From the NCBI GenBank assembly GCA_001244265.2, contig CDLV01000008.1:248001-312000 (forward strand): 64,000 nt of DNA, read 5' to 3'. The position numbers and the translations under genes were made by a program. The notes under the pieces are model-generated. The model did no database searches. It worked only from the letters and a program-made list of their open reading frames with translations, and was not told where the DNA came from. This DNA is from Microbotryum violaceum (Eukaryota). Shown here one piece after another: positions 6,748 to 20,007 of the stretch. How positions within the stretch are numbered: the stretch's first letter is position 1; every line of letters starts with the position of its first letter.

Positions 6748-7591
6748 GCGCATTTATGCCAACTGGACACTCTACGCACTATTAGCACTTAATGAACACG
6801 ATACGGATTTTTCATTTTGCACTTGTCTTGTCAGTTCTGGCCATCCTCTGCCTATGGAAACCGAATGAGCACCATCACTGACCCGTCGCTCCTTTACTTC
6901 GTTTGCAGATCGCTCTACTATCGTCGTGGCTTAGATGTTTCTCTCTTCTGGCGCGCACTCTTTGTGTGACGTAGGTTTTTATTTTTGTAACACTCTTCTT
7001 CGCAACTGTTCTTCAGGCCCCTGATACCTGTTCCGTCGAGATTTGGGTGCCGCCTCAAGACACCGTATCAGTCATCCAATGACGGTCGCGTTCGCAGACC
7101 CCCTTTTCGAAGAGTCTGTTATAAGAATATAAGTGTTGGGTAGTCCGGTGTACCTAGTAACCCGTGGAAATGTAATCACTGAAGCATCCCCCAAAGAACA
7201 CGACACTCGGTTGCCAGAGGATCATCAGCTCAGGGCGATCCGCGATCGGACATTCCCGCAAGCCGGGCTTCGACGGCTGCAATGGCGGCCGATCTGCTTG
7301 AGCGAGCAGCTGACGCAGGAACATCTGGTGGAATCAAAACAAGGAGAAGCTCAAGACTGTGATCACTGTGGGCATTGAGCACGCGACGGAACGAGTTCGA
7401 TTAAACAACGTGCTGCGATTTACGGCAAAGTGGTCCAACAATCGCGAATTACGAAACTTAGGGCTCTTTAAATTGAAAAATCCATGATGCAAAATCGATG
7501 ATGCCCTCCACGTCAGCAGCTTGTTACCACCTACCGTGGAGAGACCCCGATCGCAGGCCGGAAGAGATCGGCAATCGGGACCGGCTTGTAT

Positions 7592-7847
7592 ACATGTAAG
7601 GATATATCCTTACACATGAGTTAAGGTCAATACACAACCAAATCTGTTCATCTTGATATTGCAACATCAACATATAACTATTTCTGAATGGTGTCTGCAA
7701 GGACTACATGATAGCATGTGTATTGCAAGACTTGTAGTGATTCAAAATTTCTGTGTCCTTACCGCACCTCCCGTATCCTTACCGCACCCTCGTATCCTTA
7801 CATGTGTCGACATGTGTAAGGATACGCCCGCTCGCGCACGTGACATG
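7592..7847 (+). repeat. Left terminal inverted repeat (256 bp)
   Basis: Starts acatgtaaggatatatccttacacatg; pairs with 19452-19707. Confidence 0.95.
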
Positions 7848-8161
7848 CGTAAGGATACACTCGCGCGCAAAGAGCACTGGCTGCTGCTGGTGAATAATTG
7901 ACTCTTTCCGCACACCAGTGGTTGTCAAAGTATCGCCATGCCCATTTTTGCACTAAGTTTAGTTATACATACTATTGCTGACCGCTATCATGGCCCCTAC
8001 TGTACACTACATTAGTGATTGACAAGGCCAAAACTTCACTGGACCACTGGGGCACAACTTTGTGAGTCAAACTTGCCATCAACATGAATGTTCCCCACTG
8101 TGATTTCCTCCAGGAGCACTGCACCGCTGGAAAACATTGTAAGAGGAGAGCATCGTCAGCT

Positions 8162-9956
8162 CTATTGATCTACTTTTTTGGCGTTCCCGACACTCACTAT
8201 CTCGCATTCATGAAAAAAAGCCGACGCATCTTCCATCTTCCAGACACCTTGTCCTTCTTCAAGAGTCCCTTTGGGTGGTAGACTTGACACTTTAATGCCG
8301 ATATCGGGAGGATCGGAGGGCTCATGGTATAGACTCCACATTTCGTGCCACTGCCGCGTTAGCATTAGGTTGAAGGCTTGCAAGAAGTTCAATGACTCCT
8401 CTTCTAGCTCGTAGAAAAGAACGGAAACTAATCCGCCAGCGTTCCTGTCCCCTATCGGCCTAGCGAGAGAGCCTTTGATTGCGTCGAAATGATAGCATGC
8501 GGCCTCTTGCCCGTATCCAACCGTCGCGTTCGTAACGAAATGTGAATTGTTGATGTTGTACACTCCTGACCGAAGGCGCCAGACCATCTCTGGCATTTGG
8601 TCCGAAACACCGAAGCGTAGCTCAGCTGGGGCCAGTGAATGTTCCGGGTAAATATTGTTGATGTTGATCACAATCACACGGGGGAGCGAGGTGATTGAAA
8701 CGAATGCACCTAAGAGCCTCCGGGGCAATTGCGCTTGTGATGCCGACGGCCTGAGTTATTTGCCTCTGTGTACAATTTCAACGGTTGCCCAACGATTGAG
8801 GCGACGACGTCCGACAACGTTTCCAGCGAATGCGAAGGCAGGTGGAGACTTGAGATGAGAAGGGGCCAGTCAACCACAAACTGTCGTCTTGGGGACACCT
8901 CAATCTGAATGCAGTTGCAGGCAGTGCAATACCCGGCTCGTTGAAGATGTAATTCGACGAGAGTTCGGTCGGGATCATTCAACGTGACAGCACTTGGCAA
9001 AACCGGATGATCGACGGTGAACGAGTGAAGTGTCTCGAGCCAGGTCTGCCGAAAAAAGTGATGATTAGCGTCCAGTTTTGATCGTCTTGGGAGGGCGGGG
9101 TTCGCTAAGTGATTGACTGACTACTGGGCTACTATAACTCCCCCGCTTAAATGGAGTTGTAAAATGGCTTGACTGACTACTGGGCTACTATAACTCCCCC
9201 GCTTAAATGGAGTTGTAAAATGGCTTCCGCGCTCTTTCGACACCCCAACCACAGTGGAAATCATTCGTTCTCGTAATTGTGTGTATGCTTCAAATGCGTT
9301 CGCCGCCGGTTTCATATCAAACTTTCGAGCCATTGCTGTGTATTCGCGAATCGCATCCCATAGCTCGAGTGCCAAATATCGAGGGCGGAGCCTCAACACC
9401 ATCTCATCGCCAAGTGGAGGAATCACGTAGGCCGTATGGATGTTAAGGATATCCAAACACTGCAGCCATGGTTCCAATCCGTTGGCGACCGAGAGCAATG
9501 CGATAAGCTTTGAGTCAATCCAGCAAGAATTATCGCTCCACGGGCCTTGGATAATGACGACTGGCCCGTCTTCACCTGATCGAAGCCAGAAGTCTGCGTG
9601 GAGCTGCACAATCGTGCTACCGAGCGATGTCGACGTCGATGTCTTGGGCGGAGCGAATTTTACCCTTGGTGCAGATCTAGAGCCCTCTGGGAGCTTGTCA
9701 CTGGTGCGCTCGAGTGACGTCGACGTCGAAGCAGGTTTTGGCGTGGCGATTTCTACCTTTCTTGCAGATTTCGATGGCGCCAACTCCGACTTGGATGCAA
9801 CCATGGACAGGGGAATGTCGAATACGGACGTACATGTCCTCTTTGCCTCCGATTGTGATTCAGGTTCCGACAAGAGGAAGGCCAATCGTTTTCGAGGTAT
9901 CCGGTATTTTCGACCACTGGGGGCTTCCAAATTTCGTGCATTGTGCTGCGCAAGAA
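8162..9956 (-). CDS. 3' part of the transposon gene: USP/peptidase C19-like (USPL1-like) cysteine protease domain
   Basis: Cys box GPWSDNSCWIDS (Cys 9523-9525), CTAC zinc-ribbon-like motif, LPRVIVINI, His box WRLRSGVY..SHF (His 8540-8542), YHFDA (Asp 8483-8485), SVLFYE. In-frame intron 9177-9046; one frameshift near 8720. Confidence 0.6.
9113..9226. repeat. 56-bp perfect tandem duplication spanning a splice donor
   Basis: ttgactgactactgggctactataactcccccgcttaaatggagttgtaaaatggc occurs twice. Confidence 0.95.
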
Positions 9957-10047
9957 CTGTGAGACGGAGGATAAATCAGAGCAGGGATTCCGTCAGCCAG
10001 GCCTCAGCGACTCTCCACTCAGTCAACAGTCTGGGGCGGAGGCGTAC

Positions 10048-11477
10048 GTATTTGGGACAACTCCGTTTCTTCATTGAGCGCCCTCACAGCCATAGGGACA
10101 ACGGGGACTCGTCGCGATGGGCCGCTGAAATCTGAGCGGGGAGGAGTACCTTTCGATTTGGAATTGGACGTTTGATGGAGCTTGATGGAGCGATCCGTCG
10201 GGGAATGGCCTCGGATGAATTGCAATGAATTGAGGGCGTCAATCCAACGTCGTCTGATGATTCGCTCGAACTATGCTCGTCAGACGGCGGGTCAGGAATC
10301 TTGCGCTTGTGGGGGTATTCCTTGAATACCACATTTCGAATCGCCGGTCGTGTCCACCATTTGATCCAATTCTCTGACACAGAAAACTCGTCGATTGTGC
10401 GCTTTGCTATGGACTCAATCGATGCATGGGACTTCGCGTTGCGCATGGTGTTGACCAGCATTGCAAATCGTTCGCGCTCCGTTTGCGTACTGAGATGTCG
10501 GACCCCGAACCTCCTGACCTGCTCAATGAAGTGAAAGGCGCACCCGCTTGCCGCCTTCTCGCCAATCTGAATAGCCTCTGCAGTCCACTGTGACACCTGA
10601 TTGGGTGTGACGTTCAAGCGTCCCACATCTGCGGTCTTGCGTGCCACGTACCAATCCGAAATGGCTTGGCGAAGACCCGAAATCTGCGCGCTTGAATAAT
10701 CGACAACAAATGTGACTCCGTTGACGATGTCCTCCACGCTATAATTGGCCTCGTCAAGAATCTGAATAGGTGCGCAAAATGTCGACGGTAGAAGCCCGAT
10801 CGCTCGTGGTTGCCGACGGAGTACAGGATCGGAAACCAGCGACGAGCGCTTGGCGAATAGCAGACCGCGGCGAGCAACACCCAATTGTCGCGAAAGTAGG
10901 TGTTGTGAGCGTCGGTATGCCATCCCAAATTGCCTTCGACTAGCCGGTCGTCAATCGTTTCCGAGAGCCTCGCTTTCATCTGAGGAGTCTGGATGCCAAA
11001 TGACGTCTCAGAGTCGGTTAGCGAATTGGAGGTGATCTTCGACTTCGACCGCGACCCATCGTTCCTGGGTTGCTTCCGAGGGTCAGGATCGTGTATTTGC
11101 TCGGCAAGTGGCTGCCCTTGGCGCTGTCCTGGTATTTCGATGTACGCGAGGCAACCGGCATTGGCAACAGCTTCAATAGCTGACCTCAACGTGTCGGGCA
11201 GGGCTCCATTACGCTTACTGTGGCCCACTCTTGGTGCGTATCTCGAGATTGATCGAGTGCTGTCGAAAACAGGGCAAATCTCAGAGGCGGACGGCCGATG
11301 ACGAGGGTCCTGCGGAAATGCGGTCATTTGTCCCATGCGCAGCTCGGCGGCCGATGCCTGTGGAGCGGCTTTACGCAATTGTTGCAGCTCTTCCAGATGT
11401 TGCGGGGACGGACGCGACACCAGAGGCGGAGGATGCAAATGGTACCCTGAATGCCAGATATTTATTTCCCCGGGCAT
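10048..11477 (-). pseudogene. MULE-type DDE transposase core, disrupted upstream by the copia insertion
   Basis: HSGYHLHPPP (end of GCM/WRKY-type finger), FGIQTPQM, WHTDAH (D1), RWFPILYS, YRRHF, VVDYSSAQISG (D2), GCAFHF (CxxH), WIKWW, NSSEA (E); 1-nt frameshifts near 10750 and 10100. Confidence 0.8.
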
Positions 11478-11807
11478 TGTCGTTTGATATGTGTCTGTGC
11501 CTGTGGTATCTGCGCGGATGCGTGTGCGTTTAGTCATTAGTCACTTTGGTATTGTAGTTTGATCTGTTTAAGTTAGGGAGCGCGCGGGGCTTTCTTCCAG
11601 CGCGGCTGTTTACTCTTGATAGCTTTCTCATCACTCGCTCTACATTGTGGTCCTGACTTCTCGGCGTCGTGCACCCTCACCTATCGGAAGGTTAGTTACT
11701 GGAATACTTATTATCACTCGCTCTACATTGTGGTCCTGACTTCTCGGCGTCGTGCACCCTCACCTATCGGAAGGCTTTACTTCCGCGCTCGCATCTTTTC
11801 TGCGTTA
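11478..11807 (+). repeat. 5' LTR (330 bp) containing an internal 62-bp direct repeat (11630-11691 and 11713-11774)
   Basis: tgtcgtttg...tgcgtta; differs from the 3' LTR by 1 substitution and a 1-nt indel. Confidence 0.97.
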
Positions 11808-11819
11808 GGTTATGAGTCC
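11808..11819 (+). promoter_or_regulatory. Primer-binding site of the half-tRNA(iMet) type
   Basis: GGTTATGAGTCC directly after the 5' LTR and overlapping the gag ATG, as in Drosophila copia and Ty5. Confidence 0.8.
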
Positions 11820-14800
11820 AACGGGTAGCGTAGGAGGCCCGGGTCAGCAAAGCGATTCACATCGCACCACCAACATCGGAATGGACACCGAAACACACTC
11901 TACCGAAACGAGTGAACGTGGATTACATGTCCCAATTCTTCGGGCAGCCAACTATATGGATTGGCGTCGACGTCTGATTGGTCGTCTTGGGTCCAAGGAT
12001 TTGCATCTTTGCGCCTCGAGGCGGATGAGCCCGGCTGCGGAGGCTGTTCTCCAAGCCGCAATCGACGATCGATCGCGTGGCTTCCACTCGCCCCTCGAGC
12101 GGCTCGACTTCGCAGCTATGGACGCGAAGATCGCCAAGGAGCTAAAGAAGGAGGTTCGAACTCAAGCTGAAATCATTCAGTTTCTCGATGAGGCCAATCT
12201 TCGCTTGGTCAGGGGTTGTTACACGTCTTACGACATACTCGACTCGCTGAACACGTTCTACCTCGGAACGATGAGCGCTCAGATTTCCGCCTTGACGACT
12301 GAGCTCTATTCGCGCAAGTTCTCGTCTGGCGATCGTGGGCAGTTACTGCACCACTTGATCACCATTCATGGAATTTTGCAAGATCTTGAGGCGTGTGGCT
12401 CTGGGATGCCACCAGCTCAGCAATCGACGCTGATGCTCGATTCCGTCTTCGACTCGCAACACGAGTCGTTCACAAGCTCACTGCGTCGACCTCTGGCTCT
12501 ACCTTCGGAGATTGTTTCCGAGGCACGGTCTTACCAGTTCAAAGTCTCGCTGGCAAGTCGACAGCGAGCGATCGCCAACAAAGTGGTGACCAGCTCCGGT
12601 ATCCGCGATCCAAACGGAGTCGGTATCGGGAGCTCTCGAGGAAGAACCAGCAAGGTAAAGGGAATGGGAGTTCATTGCAACCAACGCGGGGGCTGCAGAT
12701 GACTTTGAACGGTTTTCCGGGCACACTGCATCGCTAGACCAGTGTCCCTTCGCTCCACACGCATGACAGGTAGAATCGGGAGGACGGCGATTTCCTTGAC
12801 CGTCGCGATTGCCTTTCTTGTGACGACTTCCGGACGCGCCATTGCTCAGTCGCCTGTTCCTGCGCTCGTTGCGCAAGGCGAATCGCAAAAGGGACCGCGT
12901 CGCAAAAGAGGTCACAAGAAAGGCAATCGCGACGGTCAAGGAAATCGCCGTCCTCCCGATTCTACCTGTCATGCGTGTGGAGCGAAGGGACACTGGTCTA
13001 GCGATGCAGTGTGCCCGGAAAACCGTTCAAAGTCATCTGCAGCCCCCGCGTTGGTTGCAATGAACTCCCATTCCCTTTACCTTGCTGGTTCTTCCTCGAG
13101 AGCTCCCGATACCGACTCCGTTTGGATCGCGGATACCGGAGCTGGTCACCACTTTGTTGGCGATCGCTCGCTGCTCTCGGATTTTAAGGAATCCCCGATT
13201 CAAGTCCAGATGGCCGACAACTCGCTTGGTCAAGCCATTGGATACGGGCGAATGTCTGTTAAGACTTCGCAAGGTCACCTTCTCAAATTCAAGGAGATGT
13301 ACTACCTCCCTGGATCGAGGTATGGTCTAATCTCAATGTCGTCGCTCCGCGCTGGAGGCGCGAAATTGGTTTATGGCCATGGGGGAGATACTCAACAGGT
13401 TTGGCTTGACGGCTCTCTCGTCGCCGAAACTGTCAAGACGAAGGCCAAACAACCAAGTTACGTCTTCGATTTTGAGATTGTCTCTCCACCCTCGCCTGTG
13501 CTCGTCGCATCTACCCGTGCTTCCGTTGGAGCTTCGCTCATGGAATGGCATCGGAACTTCGGACACATGGCACCCTCTTCAATTCTTCAACTCGTCAAAT
13601 CCAAGGCTATCGTTGGAATTCGTTTACTCGACAAGAAGATTGAAGACTGTGAGCCGTGCATTATCGCGAAGGCGCGCGCGGGCTCTCACAATCATGTCAG
13701 TCGAAAACCCGAACTTGTTCTTCAACGGGTTTCGATTGATCTGGGATTCGTCAACGATGACGATACCAATGGACGATCCATCTACATGGTTATCGTCGAC
13801 CAACTTTCAACCTATAAGTGGGCTTTTCCACTTGGTTCGAAGTCGGCATCTGAAGTCCTCGAGGTCTGGCGCGGCTTTCAAGCGCAGGTCGAGAGGCAGT
13901 CCGGTCAGAAGATCAAGTTTGTTCGTTCTGACAATGGAGGCGAGTTCGTCAACCAACTCCTTGGCGGCGAATTCAAGGCACTTGGCATCACCCATGAACT
14001 GGCTGCACGCTACACGCCGCAGCAGAATGGTCAAGTGGAGCGCGCGAACGGCTCTCTCTTCGCGCTCGTCCGTGCCATGCTCAAGGACTCCGGACTTCCC
14101 AAGAAGTATTGGTTCTACGCATTGGAAGCGGCTGTTTTCGTTTCCAACCGCGGTCCTCACCCACATCTCAAGGGCAAGACTGCGTTCGAGGTCTTCTTTG
14201 GCAAGCAACCCGACGTTTCGCATCTTCGCGCGTTCGGATCTACTGCCTACGTTCTCGTCCCCAAGGCGATTCGTAAGAAGCTCGATGACCATACTGTCAA
14301 GGGTACTTTCCTCGGCTATTCGGGGGAGTACAACTACAAGGTTCGCGTCGAACACGGTCGGTCTTTCAAGATCGTCGTCTCTTCCGATGTCACCTTCTCC
14401 GACAAGGCTCCTTCGATTGCGGACTCGGCTGTCGAGCCTCGCATCTACGAAGTTGAACCTCTACAGGAACACGAGTTAGTACACCAACTACCGTTTCCTG
14501 GCTTGGAGCAGATTCCGGTTTTACGGCCTGCTCCCCTACCCGAGGCAGGTTTGGCTTTTCAGCCTGCGCTCTTTCCCGAGGCAGAAGTTCCGGCTTTACG
14601 GCCTGCGCTCGTACCCGAGCTTGGTCCGGCTTTTCGGCCAGCTCCCGCTCCTCTTCCTCGTTTCCAACATATGGACGATGACGACGTTGCTCCTCCTCCT
14701 TTCCCGGCTGTCGGTCCATTGGCCGAAGACGCTGAAGTTGAAGAGGACCCGATCGATCATCGACGCGAGGAAGCTGTTGAGGCTATCGGCAGTGACGACG

Positions 14801-16598
14801 ACGACAGCCCTGCGGAACACGATCAACCATTACCTCCTGAGGATGGTTACGAGTATCGACCTTACCGTGTCGGCCGCAACCCTGGTGCGCTCGAGAACGT
14901 CGATGCAGGTAACATTTTACCGACTCGCCTGCGTGCTCAGCATCACACAGGCGCCCTTCGTGTCGTGTCTACTCGCTCGGTCTACCGTCATCCACCAGAG
15001 CTCATTGCTATGGTTTCGTCTCGTCACCCCCGCTTCCCAAGAATTTTGTGGAGGCGATGGCCTCTCCTGAGGCCAAACACTGGATGGCCGCTTCTGAAAA
15101 GGAGTTGGGCTCATTCAAATTGCACAAGGTCTTCAAGCTTACGAGGCTACCCACCGGGGCTCGCGCTATGGGCTATCGTTGGGTGTTCACTCGCAAAGAA
15201 GACGCTGAAGGCAATATCATCAGCTACAAGGCTCGGCTCGTTATCCAAGGCTTCGCTCAACGACTTGGGATCGACTACAACGAGACGTTTGCTCCTGTCT
15301 CGTCGATCACGACGATTTTGTTTCTCATTGCCATCTCTGCCGCTCTCGGACTCGTCCTCGAACAGTTCGACTATGATTCTGCGTTTCTCAACGGGATCAT
15401 GGAGGAGGATGTCTACATGAAGATTCCTGAAGGATGGACTGGTGGCTCTCAGCCCGGTCACGCTCTCAAGCTCCTTAAATCTATGTACGGCACCAAGCAG
15501 GCTCCTCGGCAATGGAACGCGGCTCTCCACAAGCTGATGACGGATCGCGGCTATACGCGCTCCAATGTCGATGCTTGTCTGTACTTCAAGTATCATGGCA
15601 AGTCGTTCGCAATCATCACTTTGTACGTTGATGATGGGCTTGCTGCATCGAACAACCAGGCTTTTCTGGACTCCGAGATTTCGGCTTTCGATGCGGTCTA
15701 CAAGCTCAAGCGACTTGGCCCGGTCAAGACGTTCCTCGGTCTCGAGTTTATTCGTACCAAGGATTTCATCTTTGTCCACCAGTCTAAGTACATTAGAGGC
15801 TTACTCGAGCACTACACGTTCGAAAGCAAGTCGAAGAAGCCGGTCGCGACTCCAATGGAGGATCGCGTCGTTTCGTCTTCTACTGCTCCGTTCGCCGACA
15901 TTCTCGTTTATCAATCGGCTGTGGGAGCGCTTCAATATGCTGCGCAACGTGTTCGTCCCGATATCGCGACTGCTGTTCGTGCGGTGGCGAAGTGCGTGGC
16001 TGCTCCAACCGAAGGAGACTGGATCTGCGTCAAGCGAATCTTTCGCTATCTTTCTGACACCGTCGACTATGGGCTACTCTACCGCGTAGGCGGTTCTACC
16101 AAATTCGAGGTGTACAGTGACGCGTCGTTTGGTTGCGATCACGACAACGGAAGATCTGTGGGAGCGTATGTCGTCATTATGGCTGGCGCTGCCATTTCCT
16201 GGAAGTCGAAGCAACAAACGATGGTCGCTTCTTCTACAGCAGAGTCTGAGACTCTGGCTGCTTCAACCGCAGCAAAGGAGGCTATCGGTCTTCGCAACCT
16301 GGCGTCCGAACTTCGCATCAATCAAGGTCAATCTACTGTTCTGCACGAGGACAACCAACCTTGCATCGATTTGGCGAAGAATCCCGGAGCTCGAGGTCGT
16401 ACACGCCATTGGAATGTGCATCATTTCTATCTACGCGAACGAATCGAGGTTGGCGATATCGATCTCCGCTACTGTCCGACCAATCTGAACACGGCCGACA
16501 TTTTCACGAAACCCCTGCCCAAACTCAAGTTCGCTACGCATCGCGAGGGACTCGGGATGGTCTCGCTGGCTACCTTGGCATGGGGGAGTGTCGTTTGA
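11812..16598 (+). CDS. Copia gag-pol polyprotein, interrupted by an inverted duplication and a frameshift near 15025
   Basis: LRAANYMDW gag start; [11 protein letters not shown] knuckle; WIADTGA protease; WHRNFGH..CEPC; SIDLG, SDNGGEF, NGQVER integrase; YKARLV, LYVDD RT; YSDASF, EDNQ, ADIFTK RNase H. Confidence 0.95.
12562..13173. repeat. 263-bp inverted duplication with an 86-bp spacer inside gag
   Basis: 12562-12824 is the reverse complement of 12911-13173; the same peptides appear in ORFs on both strands. Confidence 0.95.
16582..16588 (+). promoter_or_regulatory. Short polypurine tract
   Basis: GGGGGAG immediately before the TG of the 3' LTR. Confidence 0.7.
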
Positions 16599-16919
16599 TA
16601 TGTGTCTGTGCCTGTGGTATCTGCGCGGATGCGCGTGCGTTTAGTCATTAGTCACTTTGGTATTGTAGTTTGATCTGTTTAAGTTAGGGAGCGCGCGGGG
16701 CTTTCTTCCAGCGCGGCTGTTTACTCTTGATAGCTTTCTCATCACTCGCTCTACATTGTGGTCCTGACTTCTCGGCGTCGTGCACCCTCACCTATCGGAA
16801 GGTTAGTTACTGGAATACTTATTAATCACTCGCTCTACATTGTGGTCCTGACTTCTCGGCGTCGTGCACCCTCACCTATCGGAAGGCTTTACTTCCGCGC
16901 TCGCATCTTTTCTGCGTTA
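16589..16919 (+). repeat. 3' LTR (331 bp)
   Basis: Near-identical to 11478-11807 and followed by the TSD GGCAT. Confidence 0.97.
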
Positions 16920-17072
16920 GGCATTCCTCACGCTGCCCTCGGGCAATCGTAGCGGAGCACAGGATGTGCCTCATCGGTCCGTTACAGCTTGTGATTGGAC
17001 ACGGCGGTAACTCGTATGAAGGCCTCTCGGTAACGAGGCGAGGCGCGCGCCCGGAGGCTCGATTGGTTTTAA
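16920..17072 (-). pseudogene. Transposase segment upstream of the copia insertion (C-terminal half of the GCM-like Zn finger)
   Basis: Reads KTNRASGRAPRLVTERPSYELPPCPITSCNGPMRHILCSATIARGQREEC and joins PGEINIWHSGYHLHPPP across the TSD (one G-run indel needed); resembles GCM CPNCDGPLKLIPC...GEHDHPKP. Confidence 0.7.
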
Positions 17073-17374
17073 GGCAGTGGATTAGACTTAGTGTCTGAGT
17101 GGATTATAGTCTTGCGCGTGGGCCTATGCCTTCGCAAAGCAGACTCCCTTGTTTATCTTTTCTTTAATCACTCGTTCCTCGACTCTCGGTTCTGACACTG
17201 CGCTGCGTATCATCCTACCGCTGCCACCTCTATAGGTGGTGCACTTTTACATCAATATGCGCTCTCCCAGCCTGCTCAACAAACGGCTTCACTGAAAATT
17301 GATATTGTCCGCTTGCCTTTCTTAGTGTTGATGGTCAACTCTGAGGTTTCCTTGAAACCTCTCTTGGCGACTAA

Positions 17375-18574
17375 CGTGCCGATGATATTTACGCTGTTGG
17401 TGTCCATCAACTTTACGGAGACAGGACATTGTTTCGTCTACGAGATATTTTGGAAGAGGTTGCTGAGCTAACTGGCCTGGCTCTCCAAGGTATGCAAGAC
17501 AAGATTAGATCGGTTCCCAAGCAATGTTGACAGGCCACTCAGCCAGTTACTAACCGTTTAATTCGGCGACTTATCTGTGCCTTTGTACAGAGGACTCCTG
17601 CTTCGACTACTGGGTGGTTGACAACGCGGCTACGTCATCTACTCACTCGACTCCATGTCTTGCCTCCTGCCGGTACGACCAACTCGCAGCATTTACTGCT
17701 GCGACCGACTCTTCGGACAAGGTTCTCGGGTTGACCGACTTCGGACTCGACATCGACTCATTGCCAGCAGAAGCAACCATTACCTTGAGAGTGCGTATAG
17801 CTTCATGAGTTGACGGATTCTACGTCGTTGAGCTTTAGTCGCTGAGCTGACTCTTGATTGCAAATGTCACAGGTCTACGAGCACATCAAGGCTCGACTCC
17901 CATTCGTAAATATCACTACAAGACCTCAAGGCCGGGTGGATTCCCCTGTTCCAAGTGGCGCACCTTCTGCTTCCAAGCACGACTTGCTTGTCAGGGAAAA
18001 GCGTGAAGCATCTCCAGGCGACAGGATCACCGGCAATCTACGTCCGAACACCGAACCATATTCAACGGATGACAAGCTCGTCAACAGTGAAGATCATGCG
18101 AATTTACCAACATATAGTGAAGGAAGGACAACGATGACGGACTTGATGCTCGAAGCCTACCCACAAGAGATTGTTCTTGATCCTTGGCGGCCCAACGGGA
18201 CTTGGGGCGACGTCCTCATTGTTCGTATGGATCCAGGCTCGAGCGGTGGCTTGTCACACATGTGGGCTTTCTCGGCGTCATCATCTCGAACCGATTCAAA
18301 AGGGCGATGGAAAGGCCCGCGTTTGGATGCAAACGTCGAGTACAGCAAGTACAGCAAAAAACGTTGCATGGGCGTGTTCGTCTGTTGTGATCAATCATGC
18401 CCTGGCAAGCGTCGACCTCACACATCGCTGTCGACAGCGAGTAGGTCGAAGTTGTTTCAGGAGGAGACTCCACAGCTCGTCACAGGACGCCCCAAGAAGG
18501 CTGCAACCCGCAAGCACCTCGCTCCAAACGTTGAGGCCTACCATCTAGACAACACATGTGGCGTACCTTCAAGC
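17375..18574 (+). pseudogene. Spliced fragment carrying the N-terminal half of a GCM-like domain, in opposite orientation to the transposase
   Basis: GT-AG introns at about 17490-17590 and 17791-17871; motif HMWAF...YSKKRCMGVFVCCDQSCPGKRRPHT resembles GCM KKSCLGVVVC...C...RP; ends abruptly at TTAA 18575; the true start is uncertain. Confidence 0.6.
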
Positions 18575-19281
18575 TTAAGAGTCGTATGTTGATGCTTGGG
18601 AAGAATGGAGCGGTCCTTTGGAATAGCCTTGGGTTCTGAAACGCTTAGACGGGAGAGGTTCCGGAGCTAATGCTGGTGAAAGCGAGCCGACTTGGAGGGT
18701 AGAAGCGGAATTCACCCTCTCAACACTGCTTTGACTGCGCAGCGACGGCCAACCGGGATCGCTGTTCTGGGAGCACAGGAGAGGCATTGTTGACTTCTCT
18801 TGCTTGATGGTGTGGTGGAAGGGAGTGTCGTGGGCGAGCCGAGTGGAACAAGGTGAGTCATTGTCACGGTCGTCCTTGTGATCGTTGTGCTTATCGTCCA
18901 CATAATTGTCACAGTTCTCCTCGCAGTCCTCTGCGGACTTGATGCGATTAGGCAAGGCGCTTGTACGATCGGTGATAGGAAATTCTCCTGTTGGAGTCGG
19001 GGATTTCGATAGCCGCGGTGCGGACACCGTGCAGGTCAATGCTTCAGCTTGAAGGTCGCCAGAATCGTCCTGAGGATGCGCTGAGTTTGCCGACTCGGGG
19101 ACCGACTGGCCGTTTCCTTTCCTGATTCGACGATTGGTTCCTACCGTTGATTGGCGTTTGATGCTTGGGACTCTGAATCTCGACTTGGGAGTCCGCCATT
19201 GGGGCCGGTCTCCAGCTCCAGAACGAGTCCGAGCCCAGGGCCGGCGTCACGGTCGGGAAGTTGGCGGTTCCGCAATCTCAT
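18575..19281 (-). pseudogene. Degenerate low-complexity ORF inside the right arm of the MULE (possible second gene)
   Basis: S/P/D-rich reading frames from MRLRNRQLP (19281) to TAA at 18575, broken by stops and frameshifts; no recognisable domain. Confidence 0.3.
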
Positions 19282-19451
19282 TGATGAAAGATTTGAGTCC
19301 GTGCCTGCTGGCACAAAGCTGGAGGTCGCAATTGGCTGGTTCGCAAAATTCAAACAGTGCCACGGTGTTGACGTCGATGGGCGGTGTGGGGACAATTAGG
19401 TGAACAAATGTGAACAAAGGCTTCGAGCTGAGTGCGCCTCCTGTCGTTCCA

Positions 19452-19707
19452 CATGGCACGTGCGCGCGCGGGCGTATCCTTACACATGTCGACACATGTA
19501 AGGATACGAGGGTGCGGTAAGGATACGGGAGGTGCGGTAAGGACACAGAAGTTTTGAATCACTACAAGTCTTGCAATACACATGCTATCATATAGTCCTT
19601 GCAGACACCATTCAGAAATAGTTATATGTTGATGTTACAATATCAAGATGAACAGATTTGGTTGTGTATTGACCTTAACTCATGTGTAAGGATATATCCT
19701 TACATGT
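19452..19707 (-). repeat. Right terminal inverted repeat (256 bp)
   Basis: Ends catgtgtaaggatatatccttacatgt; pairs with 7592-7847. Confidence 0.95.
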
Positions 19708-19869
19708 GTCGTGGCCGAATCGGGACGGGCCCGGCTTGAATGCACGGCGTGTCATCGTGTACACTACATTGCAGGGGCGCTCTCAACTCCAGCGCGCTCG
19801 GACCTCTTTAGATTCTGACTTAGATTACCCGAGGCAGCGACTAGCGCGGCTCTCCCTCTCTTTTCCCTT

Positions 19870-20007
19870 AACGTTCCCTATCCTCTTCTACTCGGCATCT
19901 TCGTTTGCTCACTGCGCTGCTCCTCATAGTTTAGTGTAATACATTTCGAACGTTCCCTATCCTCTTCTACTCGGCATCTTCGTTTGCTCACTGCGCTGCT
20001 CCTCATA
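19870..20007. repeat. 59-bp direct repeat, two copies with a 20-bp spacer
   Basis: 19870-19928 equals 19949-20007 (aacgttccctatcc...gctcctcata). Confidence 0.93.

Follow-up and report, generated by a model that had tools for sequence, protein, structure and literature searches.

A degraded, probably Mutator-like element in Microbotryum violaceum and the putatively USP-like C-terminal domain of its relatives

Element structure and family range

We analysed a 64,000-nt stretch of the Microbotryum violaceum genome (assembly GCA_001244265.2, contig CDLV01000008.1, positions 248,001–312,000 of the forward strand; hereafter the window, to which all coordinates refer), which contains a dead member of a transposon family that has so far been found only among proteins of Microbotryum, the anther-smut fungi. 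Intact relatives of this copy, drawn from a set of related proteins named P0001–P0017, consist of two Cys/His fingers, a DDE transposase core (D, D, C(2)H, W, E), a Ser/Pro/Lys-rich linker and a C-terminal domain, in this order, all on one strand and within overlapping contigs that appear to derive from RNA. In the C-terminal domain, conserved Cys, His and Asp motifs are accompanied by two zinc knuckles and an LPxxL strand, and the order of these elements, as judged from the motifs, resembles that of USP-type isopeptidases. We put at about 0.7 the probability that the locus is a dead copy of a Microbotryum-only Mutator-like family in which intact relatives carry both a transposase and a USP-ordered domain, and in which the RNA is mostly unfused. 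This partly upholds an earlier interpretation of the same DNA made without database searches (the sequence-only reading), which had proposed a Mutator-type transposase fused by splicing to a USP-like protease.

The copy is bounded by terminal inverted repeats (TIRs) of 264 nt with 97% identity, as identified by blastn of the window against itself, and spans about 7592–19707, i.e. about 12.1 kb, or about 6.7 kb after subtraction of a nested Ty1/copia retrotransposon (Table 1). The previously assigned extent of 8162–17072 was therefore too small. The terminal motif of the TIRs, ACATGT, is palindromic. The 10 nt just outside the TIR ends match at only five of ten positions, and the 9-mer AATCGGGAC occurs exactly in the window at two sites only, each 10 nt beyond the well-matched TIR end. 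It could be a 9-bp target-site duplication (TSD) next to imperfect outermost TIR bases. Just beyond the right end of the element lies a 59-nt exact direct repeat (19870–19928 and 19949–20007, starts 79 nt apart). The open frame in the 5' subterminal region is without counterpart in annotated relatives and may represent an upstream exon missing from the annotation, a small second gene or a chance occurrence.

The layout of the copy was obtained by tblastn of the 1561-residue P0001 against the window. Residues 378–741 correspond to 11474–10384 (in two parts, 378–617 and 610–741), residues 917–1561 to 10320–8165 and residues 341–377 to 17031–16921 on the minus strand; residues 1–342 lie on the plus strand with two gaps resembling introns, and residues 742–916 have no counterpart in the window. 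Since five gene models of relatives (P0001, P0003, P0004, P0011 and P0012) read NVE/RPSDELPP in one chain, the 5' 1.5 kb of the window copy is inverted, unless the assembly is in error here, and the gene does not begin at a finger near 17072, where its start had been placed. Both inversion breakpoints (17031/17032 and 18535/18536) are situated at GAG followed by (A)GGCCT, a short, partly palindromic stretch common to both, through which the inversion may have arisen. The minus-strand open reading frames (ORFs) 10614–11540, 10084–10950, 9121–9975, 8710–9120 and 8162–8755 reported previously are all present.

Contigs of four public sequencing runs (X1, X16, X17 and X18) were aligned to 7900–11477 at 90% likeness. 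X1 is DNA, and the other three runs are labelled 'RNA?' by the tool, of which X16 is DNA-like and keeps the introns. At 10317/10318, where the window copy carries a deletion, X18 has 530 and X16 598 letters; the difference of 68 letters may represent a further spliced intron. The deleted residues 742–916 include TNAVES with the Glu of the catalytic triad, and the NxxE motif that had been taken for the catalytic Glu is thus a different one. Relative to the window, contigs of all four runs have one more G after 10199 and one more T after 8704, and those of two runs (X1, X16) one more G after 10763, which identifies the 1-nt frameshifts assumed in the sequence-only reading as real lesions. A 56-nt exact tandem duplication (9113–9168 and 9169–9224) is missing from the DNA-like contigs of X1 and X16. 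The lesions of the window copy were not found in other copies. Owing to the nested copia, the inverted 5' end, the lost catalytic Glu, three 1-nt deletions and the 56-nt duplication, the window copy is beyond function.

The ORF with the Cys box of the C-terminal domain (9121–9975) matches five proteins with 82–95% identity, four from M. silenes-dioicae and one from M. saponariae, which are listed as uncharacterised in their sources and of which the longest have 1561 and 1513 residues. A phmmer search of P0001 residues 1120–1561 against 1.84 billion representative proteins returned five matches, all of them members of this family, of which three fall into a second subfamily with 46–53% identity. 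A profile search at E ≤ 10, meant to catch weak USP matches, likewise yielded five proteins, all Microbotryum members of the family, and a word-based search with the transposase part (residues 270–860) yielded nine, all from M. silenes-dioicae. Two internally deleted copies of subfamily 2, P0008 and P0016, have kept the N-terminal part and the whole C-terminal domain and have lost the transposase. One X18 contig joins sequence like 19010–19039 to 9862, as expected of an internally deleted, non-autonomous copy. Several RNA-like contigs break at 9860–9862, two of which run on into 28 letters that are absent from the window.

Table 1. Features of the element in the window (coordinates in nt; strand '.' where no orientation applies).
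Feature	Position	Strand	Evidence
Candidate 9-bp TSD, left copy	7573..7581	.	exact 9-mer
Left (3'-side) TIR	7592..7855	+	blastn self-comparison
Last coding exon (CSWRKSQW...GQQ), stop 7972-7974	7975..8126	-	ORF 7972-8169, P0007, joint 8126/8198
Third intron (GTGAGT...AG, 71 nt)	8127..8197	-	X17/X18 joint 8126/8198
Exon with two zinc knuckles, LPRVIV, His box (SHF) and Asp box (FDA); 1-nt deletion at 8704	8198..9045	-	ORFs 8710-9120, 8162-8755
Second intron (GTCAGT...CAG)	9046..9177	-	X17/X18 joint 9045/9178
Exon with basic block GRKYRIPRKR, Ser/Pro/Lys-rich linker and Cys box WSDNSCWID	9178..9956	-	ORF 9121-9975
Proposed first intron (GTACGC...CAG, 91 nt), unspliced in RNA-like contigs; in-frame TGA 10021-10019	9957..10047	-	sequence and contigs
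Transposase core remnant (D1, D2, CAFH, W; Glu segment deleted; 1-nt deletions 10199, 10763)	10048..11477	-	tblastn P0001 and contigs
Nested Ty1/copia long terminal repeat (LTR) retrotransposon	11478..16919	+	LTRs, TSD, Pfam, empty-site contigs
Second Cys/His finger (CPITSC, 32 residues, HLH); gene resumes at 11477 after copia removal	16925..17031	-	tblastn P0001 341-377
Inverted 5' gene part (relatives' residues 1-342; first Cys-rich finger CMGVFVCCDQSCPGKRRPH)	17331..18535	+	tblastn P0001
5' subterminal region with 223-codon open frame 18575-19246	18536..19443	-	ORF list
Right (5'-side) TIR	19444..19707	-	blastn self-comparison
Candidate 9-bp TSD, right copy	19718..19726	.	exact 9-mer

Transposase and superfamily affiliation

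The transposase motifs quoted in the sequence-only reading are present in the window copy, namely HTDAH (D 10913–10911), VVDYS (D 10701–10699) and CAFH (from 10542). In P0003 the series reads D550-71-D621-53-C674xxH677 and W736-29-E765. Among the relatives, the first D is conserved in 9/9, the second in 6/9 (N or A in three degenerate copies), C..H in 8/8 and NAVES in 6/7. At the motif level the relatives thus combine a DDE triad with a (C/D)(2)H motif and with a W ahead of the E; the window copy is without the E. The Muta1 transposase of Aedes aegypti has its corresponding residues at D214, D283, W401 and E419 (PMC5499845), and the spacing is similar, with 71 residues between the two Asp here and 69 in Muta1, and 144 residues between the second Asp and Glu here and 136 in Muta1; the W precedes the Glu by 29 residues here and by 18 in Muta1. 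Muta1, MuDR and the fungal Hop and Mutyl furthermore share with the present family an N-terminal zinc finger followed by a DDE core, the C(2)H motif and W before Glu, and long TIRs with a palindromic terminal motif (PMC5499845, PMC6446971). With about 1,500 residues the proteins described here are about threefold the length of Muta1 (504 residues; PMC5499845), and they differ from characterised Mutator-like element (MULE) transposases in being below Pfam detection and in having an extra C-terminal domain of about 440 aa.

MULEs typically have long TIRs, often of hundreds of bp, and 8–11-bp target duplications (PMC6446971), and the 264-nt TIRs agree with the former. In the ESM Atlas, most named neighbours of the transposase among the matches listed carry PF10551 (MULE), with scores of 0.89–0.94; neighbours listed also carry ZSWIM1-3 RNaseH-like, FLYWCH or SWIM domains, and none carries hAT. 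By the tool's own statement such neighbours are a lead only. On account of the long TIRs, the D-D-C(2)H-W-E series with Muta1-like spacing and the MULE neighbours in the ESM Atlas, the element is best classed, as far as its motifs and ends indicate, as Mutator-like, and this part of the sequence-only reading holds at that level; it gained no support from Pfam.

Several observations weigh against a Mutator affiliation. The Pfam MULE families PF10551 and PF00872 were unmatched at E ≤ 1 in nine window ORFs and P0001–P0005, the C(2)H motif lies 53 residues past the second D and thus beyond the range of 15–45 given for MULE and hAT (PMC5499845), and the target duplication is ambiguous, as a longer, imperfect direct repeat of about 23 nt is likewise common to the flanks of the element. 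The first and the last of these points would be accommodated by a transposase from another cut-and-paste superfamily with C(2)H and W, that is hAT or a relative, the (C/D)(2)H motif and the W being common to MULE and hAT (PMC5499845). Such an origin is nevertheless improbable: TIRs of 264 nt are typical of MULEs (PMC6446971), the candidate duplication has 9 bp and not 8, the named ESM Atlas neighbours listed are mostly MULE, ZSWIM1-3 RNaseH-like or FLYWCH, and Pfam hAT families were likewise unmatched at E ≤ 1 in the same nine ORFs and five relatives.

Excision of the copia in silico gives the continuous reading ...REEC/PGEINIWHSGYHLHPPP and a second finger with the pattern C-x4-C-x32-H-x-H. 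A GCM-like finger had been proposed here, which was not borne out by Pfam, as no zinc-finger family, GCM included, was matched at E ≤ 1 by the nine window ORFs or by P0001–P0005. The pattern is presumably compatible with the WRKY-GCM1 superfamily, going by the patterns usual in that superfamily.

The gene models P0001 and P0011 splice out 22 residues, PVSENWIKWWTRPAIRNVVFKE (10384–10319, minus strand), that hold the W of the MULE/hAT motif. An X18 contig (10318–10708) retains the PVSENWIKWWTRPAIRNVVFKE stretch without gap, and the 'intron' of the two models looks like an annotation artefact.

Introns and the question of a fusion protein

Two introns within the C-terminal part are removed in RNA-like contigs. 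For the second intron, the borders given in the sequence-only reading are exactly those in use: contigs of X17 (depth 86, side 255) and X18 (depth 107.5, side 53) contain the joint 9045/9178, which skips 132 letters with CT..AC on the plus strand and is missing from X1 and X16. Its length of 132 nt is due to the 56-nt tandem duplication; it measures 76 nt in copies without the duplication. The third intron had gone unnoticed. Its joint 8126/8198 (71 letters skipped, CT..AC on the plus strand) was seen in contigs of X17 and X18 only, not in those of X1 or X16, and is weaker than that of the second intron, having a shorter side of only 29 letters at 90% likeness. P0007 reads ...HECEI/CSWRKSQW..., which matches the last exon. 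The coding region does reach 8162, as assumed earlier, but does not end there, since the frame continues through the third intron to the stop codon at 7972–7974. Two further joints (10916/10983 and 11121/11219) were set aside as being of low depth and non-canonical.

The intron between transposase and C-terminal domain behaves differently. Its splice-site letters are as described in the sequence-only reading, as are the borders of the second intron (Table 1). X17 record 13 (9872–10316) and X18 record 21 (9860–10316, then 530 letters, then 10318–10708) cross the proposed first intron without a joint, their sole gap being at 10199, and the crossing contigs have depths of 83.7 (X17) and 287.4 (X18). 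No joint 9956/10048 was present in the contigs of any of the four runs. In X17 and X18, intron 2 was assembled in spliced and unspliced form and intron 1 in unspliced form only. With the G at 10199 restored, the transposase frame reads ...VRALNEETELSQIRTPPPQTVD and then meets the in-frame TGA within intron 1; the Cys-box frame opens at 9975, in a different frame from that of the transposase, and has its first Met at 9804–9802. Because intron 1 is unspliced and contains an in-frame stop, the RNA seen encodes no fusion.

Three considerations weigh against a mostly unfused product. A spliced form of low abundance can escape notice in contigs. That X17 and X18 represent RNA is itself a guess by the tool, combined with what the joints suggest. 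Thirdly, the basic block GRKYRIPRKR precedes the first Met of its frame and yet aligns with GKNYRVPRKR in the subfamily that is about 50% identical. Conservation of a block ahead of the first Met suggests that translation enters from upstream, which favours some form of fusion.

Annotated relatives can be read in both directions. Seven gene models from two Microbotryum species (P0001–P0005, P0012 and the deletion form P0008 from the other subfamily) span the junction in one chain, and three of them (P0001, P0005, P0012) use exactly the junction 10047–9957. P0002, P0003 and P0004 each use another one, giving four different junctions in all, as would be expected of ab initio bridging. At one locus, the two parts are annotated as two adjacent genes, P0012 and P0017, of which P0017 begins at the first Met of the downstream frame.

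In its full form, the sequence-only reading holds that removal of intron 10047–9957 yields a single polypeptide of zinc finger, DDE transposase and USP-like protease, with the unspliced RNA as a retained-intron form, possibly regulatory, that gives the transposase alone. The gene models and the conserved residues before the Met (about 50 in all, including the basic block) speak for this model, as do the opening of the downstream frame just seven codons ahead of the proposed acceptor and the intron length of 91 nt, which restores the frame. Set against these are the intact X17 and X18 contigs across a junction for which all four runs lack a joint, while intron 2 is seen both ways, the divergent junctions of P0002–P0004, the annotation of two neighbouring genes at one locus, and a donor, GTACGC, that is weaker than the confirmed donors GTCAGT and GTGAGT. 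One of the tests that the sequence-only reading had set for itself, support for the 10047–9957 junction, thus went against it in the RNA-like contigs. We lean against the full model while regarding it as a serious possibility, and are similarly doubtful that a fusion is the main product.

Motifs of the C-terminal domain

The C-terminal domain comprises about 440–500 aa in intact relatives. All of its motifs quoted in the sequence-only reading are present in the window copy: WSDNSCWID with its Cys at 9525–9523, CTAC from 8928, LPRVIV from 8686, the His of SHF at 8542–8540 and the Asp of FDA at 8485–8483. Among relatives, the Cys box reads SCW[IL]DS in 6/7 proteins that reach this region (P0008 is degenerate there), and the His box H[FC] and the Asp box FD[AT] are each found in 10/10 relatives with the region. 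The Cys, His and Asp motifs are conserved between the two subfamilies despite an identity of only about 50%, so that the candidate triad is kept in homologues, at the motif level. Cys and His are 284 residues apart, His and Asp 19, and a Phe follows the His. Two zinc knuckles, C-x2-C (CTAC/CSAC) and H-x3-C (HKRNC/HKSDC), occur in both subfamilies and in eight of the ten proteins with His and Asp boxes.

The most similar arrangement is that of USPL1 (peptidase family C98), which has a Cys236, His456 and Asp472 triad, and thus distances of 220 and 16 residues, as well as a Phe after the His, a helical region after the Cys and, between the Cys and His boxes, a zinc site in its fingers (PMC8983731). 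A very low identity to canonical USPs is normal for USPL1, which is 14–16% identical to other USPs (PMC8983731). The zinc site of USPL1 differs in having four Cys ligands, as opposed to C-x2-C and H-x3-C here (PMC8983731).

A reference set of USPs was prepared from 120 viral loci fetched by a degenerate Cys-box pattern; of 94 ORFs of 280–700 aa, 42 with less than 55% mutual identity were kept, and all ten viral USPs examined belong to PF00443 (E 1e-44 to 4e-65). Two viral records searched for a comparable set of MULEs gave no match to PF10551. The family alignment used with hhalign has nine sequences and is shallow (Neff about 1.5). An unguided hhalign run with residues 15–290 of the family gave a single collinear alignment of family positions 29–279 to USP positions 11–238. 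It pairs the Cys with the catalytic Cys, DA.EAY with QnDa.EF, CTAC with CTKC, H..C with the second C..C and LPRVIVININ with p.vLII.LKR. When the template was cut to its last 94 positions, SHF was paired with GHY at a score of 12.4. In the ESM Atlas, all named neighbours of the domain among the matches listed are UCH/USP (0.90–0.93), and 15 of 30 neighbours are without family.

A considerable body of results weighs against a USP relationship. UCH, UCH_1 and Peptidase_C98 were unmatched in Pfam at E ≤ 1 with five relatives and at E ≤ 10 with 8/8 members, and the window ORFs gave no relevant peptidase match in Pfam. Searches of PDB by phmmer and by profile (hmmsearch) retrieved no USP. AlphaFold2 on the domain with eight and seven aligned relatives resulted in unusable models with predicted local distance difference test (pLDDT) values of 29.8 and 33.1, so that the USP/papain fold anticipated in the sequence-only reading was not predicted. 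Foldseek with the first of these models found no match at E ≤ 0.001, only noise headed by MscS and antibody chains. Aligned as a whole to the 42 viral USPs by hhalign, the domain reached a probability of 0.4%, and in the wrong region. The score of the collinear alignment, 16.1, was equalled by 14/100 column shuffles and 30/100 block shuffles. The unrestricted His/Asp segment was aligned to the wrong region, and the SHF/GHY score, obtained only after template restriction, was equalled by 9/100 shuffles. Finally, the second knuckle is H-x3-C and not C-x2-C.

Accordingly, the domain might not be a peptidase at all but a family-specific accessory, e.g. a zinc-binding DNA, chromatin or protein-interaction module, with a role comparable to that of the second ORFs of other MULEs and with Cys, His and Asp residues that are structural or coincidental. 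Consistent with this, no profile or structure method assigns any peptidase family, the hhalign scores are inside the shuffle range, and ESM Atlas scores of 0.90–0.93 are reached by 4–10 of 100 shuffled proteins according to the tool's figures, in addition to the half of the neighbours that are familyless. An accessory module of this kind would leave unaccounted for a Cys box, DA.EAY, CxxC, second knuckle, LPxxL, H-F and F-D that all stand in the register of USP motifs, a candidate triad kept between subfamilies, and Cys-His and His-Asp distances and a His-Phe pair comparable to those of USPL1. We judge it unlikely, though it is the most serious competitor of a USP-like fold.

Far less probable is that the domain is a captured host gene fragment (Pack-MULE-type transduplication) without function for the transposon. 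MULEs often take up host sequences, and plant MULEs have captured Ulp1 (PMC13317346, PMC6446971). However, no host-type homologue was detected among the 1.84 billion representatives, where all five matches were family copies, and no host USP gene lies within the window. The domain and its motifs have moreover been kept in both subfamilies and in the transposase-less P0008 and P0016, and the domain is spliced at two introns in RNA-like contigs.

Among other peptidases, the VTD deubiquitinase was rejected, because its invariant Asp-x-His is missing and the conserved His precedes the Asp by 19 residues (for VTD see PMC9741609). A USP-like fold emerges as the most likely single explanation of the C-terminal domain and is moderately favoured on account of motif order and register and not of any significant score. 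The USP/USPL1-type protease of the sequence-only reading is thereby supported in its conserved Cys...His...Asp and collinear motif order and lacks a significant profile match. Calpain and papain were dismissed on the basis of spacing and a misfit of the Asn box, transglutaminase and PNGase on the basis of a Cys-His spacing that is far too long, and Ulp1, OTU and Atg4 on the basis of triad order, all with reference to features typical of these families.

Possible function and relation to known systems

If the domain has a USP-like fold, the most likely scheme is the following. The transposase would cut and paste the element, and the extra domain would be a papain-like USP-type isopeptidase for ubiquitin or ubiquitin-like modifiers acting for the element, for instance by removing ubiquitin or SUMO that is attached to the transposase or to chromatin factors, in parallel to what may hold for the Ulp1, OTU and VTD domains of other transposons. 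Production of the domain would be either separate, through its own frame, or, for a minority of transcripts, within a fusion. In the dominant RNA, which appears to keep 10047–9957, the transposase frame would end at 10019 and the protease-like domain would stand in another frame; a fusion protein would require a minor or regulated splice, none of which was seen. An extended form of this scheme, in which a Microbotryum-only Mutator-like element bears the first USP-class (C19/C98-like) isopeptidase for ubiquitin or SUMO known on a cut-and-paste element together with a splice switch at the 91-nt intron between plain transposase and fusion, is unlikely on the present evidence. Such a splice-controlled switch would be reminiscent of P-element intron retention.

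Peptidases acting on ubiquitin or SUMO have been independently acquired by several transposon classes, with Ulp1 in plant MULEs and Ginger elements and OTU and VTD in Helitrons. As regards peptidase type, the present domain has the order Cys, His, Asp with zinc knuckles in between, as in USPs, while C48 peptidases have His-Asp-Cys. A close parallel is provided by plant MULEs with Ulp1 (C48), i.e. Kaonashi/KI-MULE and Vandal VANC-Ulp1, which likewise combine a Mutator-type element with a domain of ubiquitin-like-protein peptidase kind (predicted in the present case) that has been kept over time; the role of the domain for the plant elements is given as unknown (PMC13317346). The plant elements differ in several respects. 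Vandal and KI elements are non-TIR, and long TIRs are present here; the domain follows the transposase, sharing its strand and its RNA contigs, and does not form a VANC-type gene of its own; a host gene that could have donated it was not detected; and the host is a basidiomycete fungus.

Helitrons and Helentrons encode papain-fold ubiquitin peptidases (OTU, VTD) in or beside their transposition protein, which have been proposed to protect proteins needed for transposition (PMC9741609), and a similar arrangement is predicted here. These are rolling-circle elements, in contrast to the DDE cut-and-paste element of Microbotryum. The VTD domain has an invariant Asp-x-His, where the present domain has its His 19 residues before the Asp, and VTD activity was demonstrated biochemically (PMC9741609), whereas that of the present domain is predicted. 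From the USP family as a whole, the domain is set apart by the unmatched Pfam families, alignment scores within those of shuffles and the fold that was not predicted.

In a literature search for transposases with USP, USPL1 or PF00443 this architecture was not described; supplementary transposable element libraries of Microbotryum, which were outside the search, may list the family. The available portion of a study on Microbotryum transposable elements refers just to 'TIR elements', which on average account for 0.42% of base pairs (PMC10502011). Ubiquitin-system peptidases have been described on transposons before, and a USP type on a Mutator-like element would, if the fold holds, be a new variety of them. 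It would constitute a further independent case of such a peptidase on a transposon, in tractable fungi with many genomes, and would extend the USP fold by a very divergent branch. The domain-only copies P0008 and P0016 would allow asking whether the domain acts in trans. Proteins of the family are already in public databases, unannotated.

The nested copia element

The retrotransposon that interrupts the window copy had been recognised as a copia element in the sequence-only reading and is genuine. Its LTRs (11478–11807, 330 nt, and 16589–16919, 331 nt) are one substitution and one indel apart, it is flanked by a 5-bp duplication, GGCAT (11473–11477 and 16920–16924), and it encodes, according to Pfam, RVT_2 (E 2e-59), rve, gag_pre-integrs, Pol_BBD and SH3_retrovirus domains. 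The LTRs, the 5-bp duplication and the order gag, protease-integrase, RVT_2 are those of Ty1/copia. Contigs of X1, X16 and X18 represent the empty site, connecting 11471 straight to 16918 onward, and the insertion is young. Within the element, two copies of a 268-nt segment face in opposite directions (12562–12829 and 12906–13173; 99% complementary, 76 nt between the two), and this inverse doubling disrupts the gag/pol frame. Each LTR contains an internal tandem duplication of about 83–84 nt (11630–11809 and 16741–16921). In three gene models of M. silenes-dioicae (P0013, P0014 and P0015), the transposase is merged with copia-type gag, integrase or reverse transcriptase domains; a nested copia is therefore also present in other copies of the family, at a different position in P0014.

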